Of a stretch of 32,643 bases of DNA, positions 4,778-23,827 are shown piece after piece. The stretch is from a virus (lineage: Duplodnaviria > Heunggongvirae > Uroviricota > Caudoviricetes), in the IMG/VR virus record IMGVR_UViG_2740892229_000018, positions 1-32,643 of that record; one strand, written 5' to 3'. Position numbers and translations under genes: made by a program. Position 1 is the first letter of the stretch; each line of letters starts with the position of its first letter. The notes under the pieces were generated by a model. The model was not told where the DNA came from, ran no database searches, and worked only from the letters and a program-made list of their open reading frames with translations.

Positions 4778-5707
4778 TCAGTAGTTATGTACTGAAGGAG
4801 GCAATTCTTTATTCTTAAGTCTCATCCATGCGGAAAGATTCGTTGGTCCGTCTGGCTCATTAATATCAACATCTCGTGTGTGGTTTATTAAAACGTCTCT
4901 CGCCATTCCGATAACATACGAGAACTCATGACCATAGTCGTAGCATCTGCCGGAATAGTTCGATTGAATTTGTTTTAATGCCGGATACAGTTCGCGGAAT
5001 AATGCCTGTGAGCGGTTGGCATAATCCCATAACCATACAAGGCTGTTTGCTTCTTTTGCAGAAAGCTCGTTGGTTTTCTTCTCTTGTTTGCCGATTAACT
5101 CGCCTTCAAGCGGAACGCGAGCTGCAAGTGACAGAGCTTCGGTAAACTGCTCCTCGCTGATTTCTTTGTATGAACACCCAAAATGGGATTTCAGTGATGA
5201 CCACATGGTGATCATCGCCTTAGCCTGTTTTTCTTTTGGCAGAGACTGACCGCGACTCATGACGAGTTGTTTAATGGCTTCCTGCTGTTCAGTGGTGATT
5301 TTACCCGGCAACGCCTTTTTAGCTTTGCGTGGGTTAACTACATGGCCTTTAGTCCAGTACTCGTATAGCACATCGTCACACTCTTCTTGATACTGGATTA
5401 CATTGTCGCGGATTTCAGGGCGGACTTTGTTAGGGCTGATGGTTTGCAGCCAGCCAGCAAGTTTGCGAAGTGCCAAACAAATAATCTCACGGCACTGTTC
5501 ATCACCAGGAAGCTGCATTGTGATTTTCACAATGGAGGTTTTAAACCGTTGCTTTATTTTCGTAAACTGTGAAGCCCAATCCATACCCATGCCTTCAACG
5601 ATAGGTTTCATTGGGGTGTACGGCTCACCGTTGTGATTGACGACATAAAGCTCTGCGCCGTGGAATGGCACGTTGATAGTAGATACCGCTGTTGCTATAC
5701 TTTTCAT
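4778..5707 (-). CDS. ant: antirepressor Ant (immI region)
   Basis: Sits directly downstream of arc on the same strand, as in P22 immI. ATG at 5707 ([12 protein letters not shown]...) preferred over the track's upstream TTG at 5773. Confidence 0.7.
5672..5700 (+). promoter_or_regulatory. Psar-like promoter antisense to the ant start
   Basis: TTGATA (5672-5677), exact 17-bp spacer, TATACT (5695-5700) on the plus strand; predicted start lies at about the ant start codon. Confidence 0.45.
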
Positions 5708-5775
5708 GTCAATATTTCCTAATCCGATTTGTTGATACCGAAGCCCTGACTGTTCCAGCAGTTGGGGCTTCAACT
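5706..5775 (+). ncRNA. sar: candidate sar-like antisense RNA covering the ant RBS and the arc-ant spacer
   Basis: Transcript from the Psar-like promoter would run about 70 nt to a 7-bp hairpin gaagccc(5740-5746)/gggcttc(5765-5771); matches the size and position of P22 sar RNA; the U-tract is weak. Confidence 0.4.
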
Positions 5776-5937
5776 TTACGCGCCAATGCGCCCTTCCTTC
5801 TTAAAGCTTTCCATTACTCTCTGATAAATCTCAGAGTTAACAGACCGACCATTCTCTTCCGCCACCTTGCGTACCAAATCCAATACTTCTTTAGGCCACC
5901 GCAAATTGAACTGCGGCATCTTGCTCATTCCTTTCAT
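5776..5937 (-). CDS. arc: Arc repressor (ribbon-helix-helix)
   Basis: 53-aa product [53 protein letters not shown], essentially the P22 Arc sequence as I remember it. Confidence 0.93.
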
Positions 5938-5952
5938 ATTCACCTCACAATA

Positions 5953-5971
5953 TAGGTTCACCGTGGACCTA
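5953..5971. promoter_or_regulatory. Mnt operator (O_mnt)
   Basis: Near-perfect dyad TAGGTTCACCGTGGACCTA, placed just downstream of the Pant -10 as in P22. Confidence 0.6.
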
Positions 5972-6000
5972 TTGAGAATATAGTAGAGTGCTTCTATCAT
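5972..6000 (+). promoter_or_regulatory. Pmnt-like promoter
   Basis: TTGAGA (5972-5977), 17-bp spacer, TATCAT (5995-6000), divergent from and overlapping Pant. Confidence 0.45.
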
Positions 6001-6001
6001 G
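5976..6001. promoter_or_regulatory. Arc operator
   Basis: gaatatagtagagtgcttctatcatg is the reverse complement of the P22 arc operator CATGATAGAAGCACTCTACTATATTC as I recall it; lies between the Pant -35 and -10. Confidence 0.7.
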
Positions 6002-6005
6002 TCAA
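5977..6005 (-). promoter_or_regulatory. Pant promoter
   Basis: Minus-strand TTGACA (6000-6005), 17-bp spacer containing the Arc operator, TATATT (5977-5982). Confidence 0.6.
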
Positions 6006-6027
6006 CACACTAACTTGGAGTGATGGC

Positions 6028-6279
6028 ATGGCTAGAGATGATCCGCACTTTAACTTCCGTATGCCTATGGAAGTAAGGGAGAAATTAAAATTCAGGGCGG
6101 AGGCGAATGGGAGATCAATGAACTCCGAGTTGTTACAAATCGTCCAAGATGCTCTATCAAAACCATCGCCTGTGACTGGATATCGTGACGATGCAGAACG
6201 ACTCGCTGATGAGCAGTCAGATCTTGTTAAGAAGATGGTGTTTGATACGCTGAAGGATTTGTACAAAAAAACCACCTGA
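6028..6279 (+). CDS. mnt: Mnt repressor
   Basis: 83-aa product MARDDPHFNFRMPMEVREKLKFRAEANGRSMNSELLQIVQDAL... near-identical to P22 Mnt from memory. Confidence 0.93.
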   Translation: MARDDPHFNFRMPMEVREKLKFRAEANGRSMNSELLQIVQDALSKPSPVTGYRDDAERLADEQSDLVKKMVFDTLKDLYKKTT

Positions 6280-6378
6280 CGGTGAGTTAATTTTTGCATT
6301 TACCTGGGCCATATTGACTACTTATAAAATGAGATCAATATTTAATCGCCCAATAACGGGTGTATGTTGAGGTATATC

Positions 6379-6558
6379 ATGGCGAAAAAACCAGGTGAAA
6401 ACACAGGGAAAAACGGCGGAATATACCAAGAAGTTGGCCCACGCGGCGGTAAGAAAGACAATTTTGCCACCGTCAAGGACAACGAAAGGCTTCCACCAAC
6501 AACAAAGCCAGGTCATGGCTGGGTATTGGATAAGCGAACTCCAGACAGCAAAAAGTAA
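6379..6558 (+). CDS. small conserved protein, possibly YjzC-like; function unknown
   Basis: 59 aa from ATG 6379 (GAGG 8 nt upstream; the track's earlier ATG at 6364 lacks an RBS). Motif KPGE..NGGIYQEVGPRGG...ERLPPTT..GHGWVL resembles the YjzC-like small-protein family as I recall it. Confidence 0.45.
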   Translation: MAKKPGENTGKNGGIYQEVGPRGGKKDNFATVKDNERLPPTTKPGHGWVLDKRTPDSKK

Positions 6559-6563
6559 TAATC

Positions 6564-6588
6564 AAGCCGGGTCACTCCGGCTTTTTGA
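6564..6588. terminator. hairpin with T-run between the convergent cargo genes
   Basis: agccgg(6565-6570)/ccggct(6577-6582) followed by TTTTT on the plus strand; overlaps the last codons of the minus-strand 121-aa gene. Confidence 0.45.
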
Positions 6589-6937
6589 TATGTCGCTCGC
6601 AGAACTCAACAAGCCTGCTCATTAAGTAGCAGTAAGTCTCGTTGGCTCTTCCTGGTTCAACATCAACACCTACCCTTGAGCAGATATCGAATGCCATGTG
6701 AGCGCACTCATGGGCAATAGTAGATAGTTTGCCATTGAACACGCCTATCACATGCAAAACACCATTCTCGCTACTCATTGTATGAGACGCTCCGTTGGCG
6801 TCCGAGTCATGCACGTCAACGCCAAGTTTTTGATGCAGGCGTTGCCATTCTGGAAAGTCTCTACAAAACACAATTGTACCGCTCTCAAAGAGCGGTACGA
6901 GCATCTTTGGTACGTTTCCAATGTTAACTTTTTTCAT
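6572..6937 (-). CDS. hypothetical 121-aa protein with HExxH motif (putative minimal zincin-like metallopeptidase)
   Basis: MKKVNIGN... contains H76-E77-C-A-H80 with E94/E100 downstream; divergently transcribed from the lipoprotein gene; sits where P22 carries sieA. Function inferred from the motif only. Confidence 0.5.
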   Translation of the reverse strand: MKKVNIGNVPKMLVPLFESGTIVFCRDFPEWQRLHQKLGVDVHDSDANGASHTMSSENGVLHVIGVFNGKLSTIAHECAHMAFDICSRVGVDVEPGRANETYCYLMSRLVEFCERHIKKPE

Positions 6938-6971
6938 GGTATCCTGCGCAAAACTAAGGAGAGTTAATTAT

Positions 6972-7457
6972 ATGAAAAAATCACTGTTAATTATCCCGCT
7001 TCTGCTGGCTGGGTGCGCAAAAGTAAGCGACTATCAGGCAAGTTGCGAGCAACGCTATCCAAAGCTTAGCGATATGGCTAATTGCCTTGATGCCAGCTTG
7101 AAGAACGACTCTCGCATGGCATCAGCACCAACACCTAAGCTGTATGTCCTTGCTGCGAAGATGCTCGGGCAAGGTGTCGATGAAGGCAAGATAAGTGACA
7201 CACAGGCAAGACTTGAACTTCAGAATCTTTATGTTCAATTACAAAGCCAAGAACAAGCACAACAAATAGCACAAAGCCAAGCATTCCAGCAGGCTTTATT
7301 GAATTATCAGGCTGTAAACACAATGCAAGCGATCGAGCAAAAAGCGCGCCAGCCTGTTATAACTCAACCTTACCCAACACGCGTTGACACATATACAAAC
7401 TGCAATTCAGGATTTGGAAACACGGTAACATGCAACAGTAGCAGTAATATCAGGTAG
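6972..7457 (+). CDS. putative lipoprotein with Gln-rich coiled-coil segment
   Basis: MKKSLLIIPLLLAGC has a signal peptide and lipobox (LAGC); AAGGAG RBS 8 nt upstream of ATG 6972; central segment QNLYVQLQSQEQAQQIAQSQAFQQALLNYQ. Confidence 0.65.
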   Translation: MKKSLLIIPLLLAGCAKVSDYQASCEQRYPKLSDMANCLDASLKNDSRMASAPTPKLYVLAAKMLGQGVDEGKISDTQARLELQNLYVQLQSQEQAQQIAQSQAFQQALLNYQAVNTMQAIEQKARQPVITQPYPTRVDTYTNCNSGFGNTVTCNSSSNIR

Positions 7458-7471
7458 TTATATCTTATCTT

Positions 7472-9352
7472 TTATTGCTGTTCTGCTGTAATTTGGCTTG
7501 AAAGTATAGGGCGTATCGCATTTGCAGCATTATTTAGCGCTCTTTCATAGGCTGGTGTTCCTGCTTTGGTGTTTGCCAGACGTAAGAGAGCATTCCTTGC
7601 TGCTTTGGACTCATACAAGCGCATCATTGCACCGAAACCAGCCTCAAGCCCCATTGATACGCCAAGAGTCGCAGTTGCGCCAATCGTCCTTATCCTGTTG
7701 GCTTGCGATTGCCCCGTCTGAGTTACTACATTTGCGGTGTCTGACCTTGCTGTTTGCTGTAGAACTTCATGAAGAGCATCAAGCTCTTTCATGTGCTTTC
7801 CTGAAAAAATAGTGTTGTAAATTTCACCGCCTGACTGAGATTTCAGCTTATTAACTTCAGTGATGAACTTGGCTGGAGAGTCACCGGCCTTTTCCGCTAT
7901 TTTGCTGACGTAAGCTGCACGCATAGCATCTTTCCCTTTATCATCCAGTGCGCTCCAGATTCGTTTCACGTCAGATGGTTTTCTGCTTAATACAACAGTA
8001 TTTATAAGTTCAGGACTGGCTTCACTGCTTGCCTTGTTGAGCTTGTTAGCAATGTTTTTATTAAGCACCTTATTATAAACGTTTGCATAATCGGAATTTG
8101 CTTTAAGGTATTTTGCTGCGTCTGACGCACCGAGGTTTTTTGCAACTGCGTTACGAAGGTCTTTTGACATTGCATTCTCTACCATATTGGTAGCTGCTTT
8201 TGCCTGGTTGGGGAAGACCATAGCATCTCCCTGAACATTAGATCTAAATGCTGTTCTGTGCTGACGCAAGAGATCAAACGTAACATCCAAATCAGTTGCA
8301 GGGTTTGCTAATTCTTCACGTAGGTTACGCAAGGATGTAAGCAGGCTTTGATTGGCTGAAGTCCCAAGCCGTTCCTGTCTTGCGATCGCTGTATTCAGAG
8401 CATTCATGGTATTTGTGGTATCAACTGCGGCATTACCCATTTTATTGGTGACGTCATTGATAACAGCGCCAGCGGCATCCTTCCGCCCCCTTAACGTGGT
8501 GGTAAGAGATTTCACCACATCATCAGGGTTGTACTCACCAAAACGGTCAAAATAATTACTTACCAGCTTACTACGCGTTGCATATTGCTCCGCTCGCTTT
8601 GAGCCTGTCCCGAGCAAAGCCCCCTCGGCATCCTGAGTTAGGCCGCGAGTGAAAGCATTTTTCGGCGGGATAACATCAGATGTCATTGGTGTCACGCCCA
8701 TCGATTCTGATGTGGCAATTTTCTTCGCCACTTCTGGCGCAATATCACCTTTTATAGCCGTTATTCCACGCCCTATTCCCTTTGCTGCTGCGGAAAGAAC
8801 ACCCTGAGTGGCAAGGTTAACTCCGGCATTTTTAGCTGCATTTTGTGCGAAATCGCCTTTCTGATTTGCGGCCTCTGCCAGTGATCCAATAGCCATGCTT
8901 CCTGCCGTTCCAACTCCTGGAACTAAATACCCACCAATTGTTTCACCGGCTTGCGCGTAGGGGTCTGTCGGTCGATCGACAGGGCGATAAACATCATCCA
9001 AAACCTTGGGGCCACCAAGCCCCTGACTGATTGCATTAATCAGACTTGCGCCACCCTGCAATACGTCAAATGGTATGTTTACCAGACCACGACCAGCCTG
9101 TTCTGCAATTTGCCCTGCACTTTGACCACCAGTGAGCCAATCGCCAGCTTGTTGCATCAATGATGGTTCTTCTTTCTGCTGCTGAGGTGGAGGGTATGCT
9201 GCATAAAACTGATCTCTTGCTTCAGCCCATTTGTCACCAGCCTTAGGGGCAACAACCTCATCAAAATATTGCGCTTGAGCCTGTGCTTTCTGTTCTTCAG
9301 TTAACGCCTGATACTGTGGAGAAGCGATAACATCTTTCCATGCTTTAGCCAT
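7472..9352 (-). CDS. DNA-ejection (injection) protein, P22 gp16-like
   Basis: 626 aa, last of three consecutive ejection-protein genes between tail needle and immI, as in P22; size close to P22 gp16. Confidence 0.7.
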
Positions 9353-22859: not shown

Positions 22860-23327
22860 TCATCGAAGGCATTGCGTCCTGATGTATTCCTGAAGCGTTC
22901 TCAGTGCTGTTTGGTCGCGGATAATTCCGTCCCGGATACCGAGAACGTTTCGTCCAGCAACTGGAGAGAGTTCGACGGTGGCATCATTGCCCATGCCGGA
23001 GGAGCTGGAGGTTTCGGCTGAGGATGGCACAGGGCATTTTCCTTTGACGAGCACCCGACCACCATTATCAAGCTTGCGCCGAAGAGCATCATTTTCAGCT
23101 TTCGCATCAGCTAACTCCTTCGTGTATTTAGCATCGAGTGCATCAGCATCACGCTGGCGCTGTTGCATGTCAGTAATGGTGGCGTTCGCCTTCTCCAGTT
23201 CACTGGCCTTGTTATCGCGCTGTTCTTTGTAGGCGATGGCGTTATCATGGTAATGGTTAACAGCCCATGACAGGCAGACGATGATGCAAATAACCAGAGC
23301 GGAGATAATCGCGGTTACTCTGCTCAT
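22860..23327 (-). CDS. i-spanin Rz
   Basis: N-terminal TM segment [18 protein letters not shown] then coiled coil; start overlaps the endolysin stop (ATGA). Confidence 0.8.
22901..23107 (-). CDS. o-spanin Rz1 (lipoprotein embedded in Rz in another frame)
   Basis: [21 protein letters not shown] has a lipobox, followed by Pro-rich [16 protein letters not shown]; fully inside Rz, as for lambda Rz1. Confidence 0.7.
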
Positions 23328-23827
23328 TGCTGCCCCCACAAACAGACTTCACGCTCAATCTCACGACGAGTCATCAGACCTTTCCATTGCTTACCGCCAG
23401 CGTATGTCCAGCGACGTAGCTGATCACATGCGCCTTTGATATCGCCCTGGTTGATTTTGTGCAGAAGCGTCGATGTTCTGAAATTGCCAGCGCCCACGTT
23501 GTAGACGAACGAGTAAAGAGCGCCGCGCGTTGTTTCCGGTATATCGACTTTGATGTACGGGTTAATTTGTCTGGCGACCGTGGCAAGGTCTTTATTCAGG
23601 AGGGCTTTGCATTCTGCTTCGGTATACGTTTTACCGGGAATGATGTCTTTTCCGGTGTGCCCGTAACATACAGTCCATACACCAACTATGTCTTTGTAAG
23701 GATTATGTCTCACACCTTCCAGACCATCGTTACCACTCGGTCCAGTGATTAACACAGATGCTATAGCAATAGCCCCGCCACTTATCGCCGCTATTACGCT
23801 ATTTCGTAGTGCCGGTGACATTGCCAT
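23324..23827 (-). CDS. SAR endolysin (phage lysozyme, P21 R-type)
   Basis: N-terminal Gly/Ala-rich signal-anchor-release segment [20 protein letters not shown] then lysozyme domain; close to P21 R as I recall it. Confidence 0.88.

Follow-up and report, generated by a model that had tools for sequence, protein, structure and literature searches.

Only a third of the sequenced P22-like phages carry sieA (Leavitt et al., PMC10883804). We have analyzed the IMG/VR virus record IMGVR_UViG_2740892229_000018, the window being the whole stretch, 32,643 nucleotides (nt) at positions 1 to 32,643 of that record. It corresponds to an E. coli prophage of the P22-like group (Lederbergvirus type), inserted beside tRNA-Arg(CCT). 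The gene at 6972-7457 on its plus strand codes for a predicted lipoprotein, and we have found that this open reading frame (ORF) is an exact cassette substitute for the sieA ORF, located behind the sieA promoter and ribosome-binding site. The relation to SieA is one of positional and regulatory equivalence, not of homology. The features that define the locus are the following.

6883-6967, plus strand: promoter and 5' leader in common with sieA of P22 (78 of 85 nt identical)
6907-6937, plus strand: the promoter PsieA as annotated in P22 (31 of 31 nt identical)
6937-6945, plus strand: extended -10 element TGGTATCCT, within the shared leader
6972-7457, plus strand: lipoprotein gene; precursor of 161 amino acids (aa), mature protein of 147 aa; phrog_6067, with no assigned function
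6962-7514, no strand: exchangeable cassette, delimited by blastn breakpoints; it spans the ORF, 14 bp of spacer and the final ~14 codons of gene 16
7472-9352, minus strand: gene 16, ejection (DNA-transfer) protein; phrog_770, 76% identical to P22 gp16

In P22 the order of the region is gene 16 (plus), sieA (minus), PsieA, the mnt terminator, orf59a (minus), mnt (minus), arc, ant and 9. The window is 96.6% identical to P22 from 5692 to 6961, a segment that starts inside ant and continues through arc, mnt, orf59a, a divergent ORF of 121 aa, PsieA and the Shine-Dalgarno CTAAGGAG. The homology ends at 6961, about 10 nt before the ATG of the lipoprotein gene and 7 nt before the position of the sieA start, and similarity to P22 resumes only within gene 16. 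The seven mismatches to the 85-bp segment of P22 are mostly at this junction. It has been reported that 85 bp of upstream sequence plus the sieA ORF in single copy sufficed for full exclusion (Leavitt et al. 2024, PMC10883804). In 10 of 17 distinct upstream contexts a TGnTAnnnT element was located 24-27 nt 5' of the ATG (0.94 expected; 0 of 2000 shuffles), and ~40 nt containing this extended -10 element and the Shine-Dalgarno are kept at a fixed distance from the start.

The cassette bounds are the points at which nucleotide homology to prophages with other cassettes (P22 and the E. coli prophages L096 and L097) breaks. By blastn, L096 and L097 are 91-99% identical to the window at 6300-6961 and 7515-7700 and unrelated to it in between; the slot with the other cassette lies at 969-1418 in L096. 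The tail of gp16, coded in 7472-7514 on the minus strand, travels with the cassette and differs from the NAIRPLFATEATQQ found in the other-cassette prophages. An initial annotation of this stretch, made from the sequence alone, had placed the lipoprotein gene directly upstream of the DNA-ejection genes. Actually, it is on the opposite strand and convergent with gene 16, the two stop codons being 14 bp apart. The ORF itself is exactly as given there, 6972-7457; it is on the plus strand and 161 aa long, and the prophage setting proposed at the same time also holds (tRNA-Arg, integrase, P22-type tailspike, immI, ejection, head and lysis genes and a c2-type repressor).

The gene is real and under strong purifying selection. 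Its Shine-Dalgarno, AAGGAG, is at 6956-6961, 10 nt before the ATG, and its translation begins MKKSLLIIPLLLAGC followed by AKVSD; RefSeq annotates the identical start in identical prophages, as a 'hypothetical protein'. The comparison with the allele of the LF82 prophage Gally gave 21 synonymous and 4 non-synonymous differences and a ratio of non-synonymous to synonymous change (dN/dS) of 0.044, and the median over 13 alleles was 0.09. A single PHROG matched, phrog_6067 (E = 3e-109). We found 90 clusters of homologues with 50-97% identity and 153-162 aa, all of them in Enterobacterales (E. coli, Citrobacter, Serratia, Klebsiella, Cronobacter, Yersinia, Pectobacterium, Morganella, Providencia and Tatumella). 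Five sequenced phages carry the gene, namely Gally, vB_EcoP-720R6, Salmonella VSe13, Salmonella 'MS2 LVA' and Proteus Brookers, and among 5426 complete E. coli genomes we found it in 186 (3.4%), clinical lineages included. A compositional anomaly was considered and rejected, the GC content of the gene (0.449) being close to that of the window (0.476) and of gene 16 (0.469).

The position of the gene is also constant across genomes. In every locus examined individually the lipoprotein gene was convergent with gene 16 and located between gene 16 and the tailspike or mnt gene, in prophages or phages of E. coli, Salmonella, Citrobacter, Providencia, Tatumella, Morganella, Yersinia, Klebsiella and Proteus. 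These loci include Gally, Citrobacter, Providencia, two Tatumella species, one metagenome-assembled genome, Morganella, Yersinia ruckeri and Klebsiella aerogenes, and the slot is kept though gp16 is only 30-39% identical between them. On the other side the neighbour varies and may be mnt, a further lipoprotein, a Bro-N protein or directly the tailspike. The arrangement was also found in 76 of 80 IMG/VR loci whose alleles share at least 96% identity, and these loci have at least three types of gp16 and at least four upstream contexts. We searched the loci for co-occurrence with SieA types A and B as queries; the two genes were never found together, either in the 112 lipoprotein loci or in the 14 SieA loci, and every SieA found was type-A-like.

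In order to survey the cassettes, an exact 28-nt piece of the promoter was searched in IMG/VR and the first ORF after the Shine-Dalgarno was read. At least 12 unrelated families were found behind this segment, 11 of the 12 with a signal peptide or transmembrane (TM) segments:

Lipoprotein: 18 loci
Signal-peptide protein of 129 aa: 13 loci
SieA: 12 loci
Protein of 109 aa with an N-terminal anchor and a helical region, first family: 10 loci
Protein of 109 aa with an N-terminal anchor and a helical region, second family: 10 loci
Two-TM protein of 75 aa: 9 loci
Two-TM protein of 62 aa: 5 loci
Single-pass protein of 149 aa: 4 loci
Single-pass protein of 106 aa: 3 loci
Signal-peptide protein of 99 aa: 2 loci
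Signal-peptide protein of 68 aa: 2 loci
Apparently soluble protein of 140 aa: 2 loci

SieA is the only one of these cassettes with an annotated function. One promoter segment standing before at least 12 unrelated cassettes (window 6883-7514; IMG/VR loci L098-L177), mostly coding for envelope proteins, is the signature of an exchangeable anti-entry hotspot. The 62-aa two-TM ORF is unannotated by RefSeq in L097 (~970-1158).

Evidence on expression comes from the prophage Gally of strain LF82, where the homologue LF82_138 (GALLYPH_13) is 97.5% identical in amino acids. We used the published RNA sequencing values (PMC9928086, tables S1 and S4), expressed as log2(fpkm+5), fpkm being fragments per kilobase per million:

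LF82_138, LB stationary phase: 6.29 / 5.96
LF82_138, cell-culture medium: 7.9-8.2
LF82_138, macrophages, 1 h: 10.3
LF82_138, macrophages, 6 h: 8.5-8.7

The adjacent gene 16 of Gally was at 3.6-4.2 in all conditions (PMC9928086), and LF82_138 was thus transcribed at ~5-80 times the level of this neighbour. A high LF82_138 with a gene 16 that stays low indicates transcription from the repressed prophage. The upstream flank of Gally differs from that of the window, and the expression evidence transfers through the gene and its proximal leader, not through the whole promoter. By analogy with this homologue, the gene would combine a promoter of its own with expression in the repressed prophage, as is expected of a moron. 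The terminator scan found no terminator-like site 3' of its stop codon, where a moron with its own terminator would have one.

The divergent neighbour at Gally-type loci is a second lipoprotein, GALLYPH_14 or LF82_139 (5447-5866 of the locus L001, minus strand), which begins MKRIIGVVAGAILLSGC. It has a weak match to the PEGA domain (E = 0.004) and belongs to phrog_6823. In LF82 lysogens it is transcribed above LF82_138 (log2 fpkm of 9.8-11 outside LB).

The protein can be divided into the following parts, all of them on the plus strand:

6972-7016: signal peptide with the lipobox L12-A13-G14-C15 (nt 7005-7016) and Ala at +2
7017-7265: N-terminal helical domain, residues 16-98, with Q22, C25, C38 and A79 invariant
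7203-7352: Gln-rich predicted helix or spacer, residues 78-127, of this form in the clade of P22-like prophages only and shorter or different in distant relatives
7383-7454: predicted C-terminal beta-hairpin, residues 138-161, with a conserved C144-x9-C154 pair and a T-x-C...G...C motif (low confidence)

The lipobox LLAGC, already pointed out in the initial annotation, is canonical (LLAG followed by Cys15) and agrees with the PROSITE-type rule, with K2 and K3, an uncharged h-region LLIIPL at residues 5-10 and L-L-A-G-C up to Cys15. The pattern is present in 82 of the 90 close homologues and in 124 of 151 distant ones, and from it we infer that the protein is lipidated. Lipoproteins without Asp after the lipidated Cys are sorted to the outer membrane by the Lol pathway. 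The residue at +2 is A, T, S, V, G, M or Q, and among the 206 lipobox-containing family members it is never Asp; from its +2 Ala, our protein is predicted to be sorted to the outer membrane. The signal peptide is the only hydrophobic segment, and the hydropathy scan found no 19-residue window of TM strength, against three segments in SieA.

C144, G149 and C154 are each conserved in at least 90% of the sequences (alignment A2), and the C-terminal CxnC motif appears in 79 of 90 close and 95 of 151 distant members. The two conserved Cys pairs, C25/C38 and C144/C154, fit disulfides in an exported protein, and the bond between C25 and C38 is likely. Between the two pairs lies the segment that had been described as Gln-rich and heptad-like. 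The first half of this description is correct, with 16 Gln in 50 residues (78-127; binomial P ~2e-10 against a background of 4.4%). The second is not supported, since at most 5 of the 15 core hydrophobics fall on a/d positions in any heptad register and the hydrophobic moment at 3.5 residues was 0.43 versus 0.39 +/- 0.20 in shuffles (p = 0.38). Neither analysis shows heptad periodicity, and the coiled coil was rejected. AlphaFold gives a long helix over the Gln-rich segment, with a low predicted local distance difference test score (pLDDT) past about residue 100.

A profile search of 1.84 billion representatives retrieved 240 relatives, mostly lipoproteins of 125-140 aa, which keep the N-terminal domain (Q22, C25, C38, A79) and the C-terminal hairpin around a shorter and variable middle. 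The median distance between Cys38 and Cys144 is 105 residues for the close clade and 82 for distant members. There was no match for the lipoprotein in Pfam, NCBIfam or PADLOC, no family assignment in Pfam or NCBIfam for ten distant relatives, and only chance or signal-peptide matches in a search of PDB sequences with two profiles. A profile search for distant members gave 13 mostly short metagenomic contigs, and the genomic context of these members therefore rests on two loci. Both relatives have ~35-40% identity and are without the Gln-rich spacer. One (L009 6208-6633) is surrounded by chromosomal genes only (uvrC, pgsA, uracil-DNA glycosylase (UDG), EarP and bio genes), and phage genes are absent from its vicinity. 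The other (L010 4734-5126) lies, together with an integrase and an AAA_25 protein, in an island of 6 kb resembling a satellite or small integrative element.

The rest of the prophage is arranged, from left to right, as a host gene of the formate/nitrite transporter family, the tRNA, the integrase, the tailspike with a P22 head-binding domain, ant/arc/mnt, the lipoprotein gene, the ejection genes 16/20/7, the head genes, a complete lysis cassette, Q, the replication genes, cII and the c2-type repressor; immI was also recognised. The remaining features used here are the following:

1-933: gene of the formate/nitrite transporter family
1009-1083: tRNA-Arg(CCT)
1209-2426: integrase, directly adjoining the tailspike gene
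6564-6583, plus strand: terminator-like hairpin (terminator scan), at the position of the annotated mnt terminator of P22 (5213-5235 of the P22 locus L002) in the colinear block with 96.6% identity
6572-6937, minus strand: divergent 121-aa ORF with a HECAH (HExxH-like) motif, overlapping the promoter region; phrog_1365, with no assigned function
22860-23339: Rz, part of the lysis cassette (holin, lysozyme, Rz, Rz1)
22901-23107, minus strand: embedded ORF of an Rz1-type lipoprotein, inside Rz

The hairpin at 6564-6583 is predicted to separate the mnt-orf59a transcript from the transcription unit of the lipoprotein. The 121-aa ORF has a counterpart with 99% identity in the P22 record BK000583 (4862-5224, plus strand, in L002) that is unannotated there. 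Another terminator-like hairpin (6876-6898, minus strand) sits ~40 nt inside this ORF, which makes its status as a gene uncertain. A functional pairing of the ORF with the lipoprotein was rejected, given that Gally-type loci, and most other lipoprotein loci too, are without it. At the left end (1-2426) the integrase is beside the tailspike gene, whereas the P22 prophage has int at one end and gene 9 at the other; either attP is upstream of int in this phage or the integrase comes from another element. The Rz1 lipoprotein inside Rz implies that the prophage encodes at least two lipoproteins.

We interpret the locus in terms of exclusion because the slot holds many unrelated and exchangeable proteins, nearly all of them of the envelope, one of which is a proven injection blocker. 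The replacement of the sieA ORF, the constancy of the slot, the lack of co-occurrence with SieA and the transcription of the homologue in lysogens all favour this explanation. An exclusion role had been suggested in the initial annotation and is the best-supported hypothesis through the sieA slot and promoter, although the arguments used there, placement, coiled coil and the comparison with Cor and Llp, were weak or wrong. By analogy, there would be an even chance that this lipoprotein, predicted to be expressed in lysogens and located in the outer membrane, is an entry-stage superinfection-exclusion factor, a functional analogue and not a homologue of SieA. The prophage would make the small lipoprotein during lysogeny from the sieA promoter and leader. 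The mature protein would have a disulfide-stapled helical domain by the anchor, a Gln-rich helical spacer and a small disulfide-stapled hairpin at the C-terminus, and it would act from the outer membrane or periplasmic side on incoming P22-like phages. It could disturb the assembly of the trans-envelope conduit of gp7/gp20/gp16, or, in the way that Cor and Llp act on FhuA, it could mask an outer membrane protein on which ejection depends. The most likely mechanism would be that the protein interferes, at the outer membrane or immediately inside it, with the ejection conduit of the incoming phage, or else with an outer membrane co-receptor, and we hold this to be as probable as its opposite. 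The product of gene 16, the convergent neighbour of the lipoprotein, is part of the apparatus targeted by P22 SieA, because the escape mutations to SieA map to gp16 and gp20 (PMC10883804). More tentatively, and with some doubt, the sieA position might be a general anti-entry hotspot, with one conserved promoter and leader for a dozen or more unrelated small envelope proteins, of which the lipoprotein, lipid-anchored and facing the periplasm, is the outer membrane arm that blocks the assembly of the gp7/gp20/gp16 conduit. We know of no exclusion protein that blocks the assembly of a podovirus conduit from the outer membrane side.

Several of our results weigh against an exclusion function. The searches with P22 SieA and with the type B SieA of HS1 (tblastn) found nothing in the window or in any lipoprotein locus, and no fold similarity to SieA, Cor, Llp or Ltp was found. 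Cor and Llp, which the initial annotation had taken as models, share with our protein matches confined to the signal peptide, with no sequence or fold homology. The PADLOC models left the lipoprotein, the only cassette screened, unmatched, and the literature search found no paper on the family. A simple sigma-70 scan did not flag the PsieA-type promoter site. The same allele was found paired with several types of gp16, which gives no sign of co-adaptation with the ejection proteins; co-adaptation with one type was in fact rejected, near-identical alleles being located beside at least three. The chromosomal relative means that the ancestral role of the fold need not be anti-phage. In LB, LF82_138 was 4.5-fold above the prophage median, under the 5-fold cut-off with which the authors of the LF82 study considered Gally to be without morons (PMC9928086). 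Besides, the induction in macrophages and in cell-culture medium could point to a role in the interaction with the host instead.

This last point leads to the main rival explanation, a lysogenic-conversion factor of the envelope with a benefit for the host unrelated to phages (robustness, serum or immune resistance, adhesion), similar to Bor or Lom. With respect to LB stationary phase, the Gally homologue increased ~4-fold in cell-culture medium and, at 1 h in macrophages, ~16-fold. The wider family has a chromosomal non-phage member, and none of the known exclusion or defence proteins is similar to ours. However, LF82_138 and four neighbours were induced 6- to 40-fold in macrophages (PMC9928086 tables, LF82_138-LF82_765), and the induction of all five genes at this end of Gally together, tailspike and mnt included, indicates a regional and not a specific response. 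Deletion of the whole of Gally left the survival of LF82 in macrophages unchanged (PMC9928086). A gene strictly tied to the sieA slot and promoter, alternating with many small envelope proteins, is more typical of an arms-race locus, and we consider a benefit of this kind unlikely, if still worth keeping in mind.

It is quite improbable, in our opinion, that the protein is a factor for 'lytic conversion' of the Llp type, neutralising at induction the receptor or ejection trigger on the dying cell, debris and vesicles and sparing the progeny. An outer membrane location would suit protection against debris and vesicles, sieA is reported to rise from the same promoter during prophage induction (PMC10883804), and inactivation of P22 by outer membrane vesicles is reported in PMC7541932. 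Nevertheless, the homologue was clearly transcribed in uninduced lysogens with the late genes at background, and we found no similarity to Llp beyond the signal peptide; besides, such a mechanism is itself a form of exclusion and not a real alternative to it. A role in lysis or virion morphogenesis, for example as a spanin-like outer membrane lipoprotein, we hold to be extremely improbable. A predicted outer membrane lipoprotein adjoining late genes might suggest it, and one distant relative has a marginal match to an Rz-like spanin PHROG (E = 0.007), in the signal-peptide region only. The gene is on the strand opposite to the late operon and is dispensable, P22 and most P22-like phages being without the lipoprotein and unrelated cassettes replacing it. 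The spanin or lysis role was rejected because a complete cassette with holin, lysozyme, Rz and the embedded Rz1 is already present elsewhere in the window.

If the lipoprotein and the other cassettes are exclusion factors, this would explain what the remaining P22-like prophages use. They would also constitute a natural set of inhibitors with which to probe the steps of the gp7/gp20/gp16 DNA-delivery conduit at the outer membrane, periplasm and inner membrane. The presence of the lipoprotein in 3.4% of the complete E. coli genomes makes it relevant to the prediction of phage susceptibility. A sieA promoter driving a dozen alternative envelope cassettes may be a more useful lead than the lipoprotein alone.

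The lipoprotein family is uncharacterised, while prophage envelope proteins for exclusion are as a kind already well known, and the closest comparison is P22 SieA (phrog_7745), of a family with a FxRYPxEAxxFNK motif. Both genes occupy the slot between genes 16 and 9, convergent with gene 16, and in this window both the PsieA promoter and the Shine-Dalgarno are in common. Both code for prophage-expressed envelope proteins of similar size (161 aa for the lipoprotein, 164 aa for SieA) with overlapping host genera. The difference is that SieA is a polytopic protein of the inner membrane with a demonstrated function, and the lipoprotein has only a cleavable signal peptide and a predicted anchor in the outer membrane. 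Cor (phi80/N15/HK022/T1; phrog_1119) and Llp (T5; PDB 8a60 chain B) are made to block the entry of incoming phages. Ltp of the Streptococcus thermophilus phage TP-J34 is a prophage lipoprotein that binds part of the DNA-delivery apparatus of the incoming phage and so prevents injection (PMC3952083); a target of this kind is what we propose here. Ltp, unlike our lipoprotein, is surface-exposed in a Gram-positive host and differs in fold, and the PDB-wide sequence search gave no match between them. At the level of the locus, the sieA slot resembles the defence hotspots of P2 and P4, with a fixed position, conserved flanks and many unrelated exchangeable cassettes (compare PMC13586616). The sieA slot differs in holding single small envelope proteins behind one promoter instead of cytoplasmic multi-gene defence systems. 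The latter are what the hotspots of these temperate phages and satellites carry.

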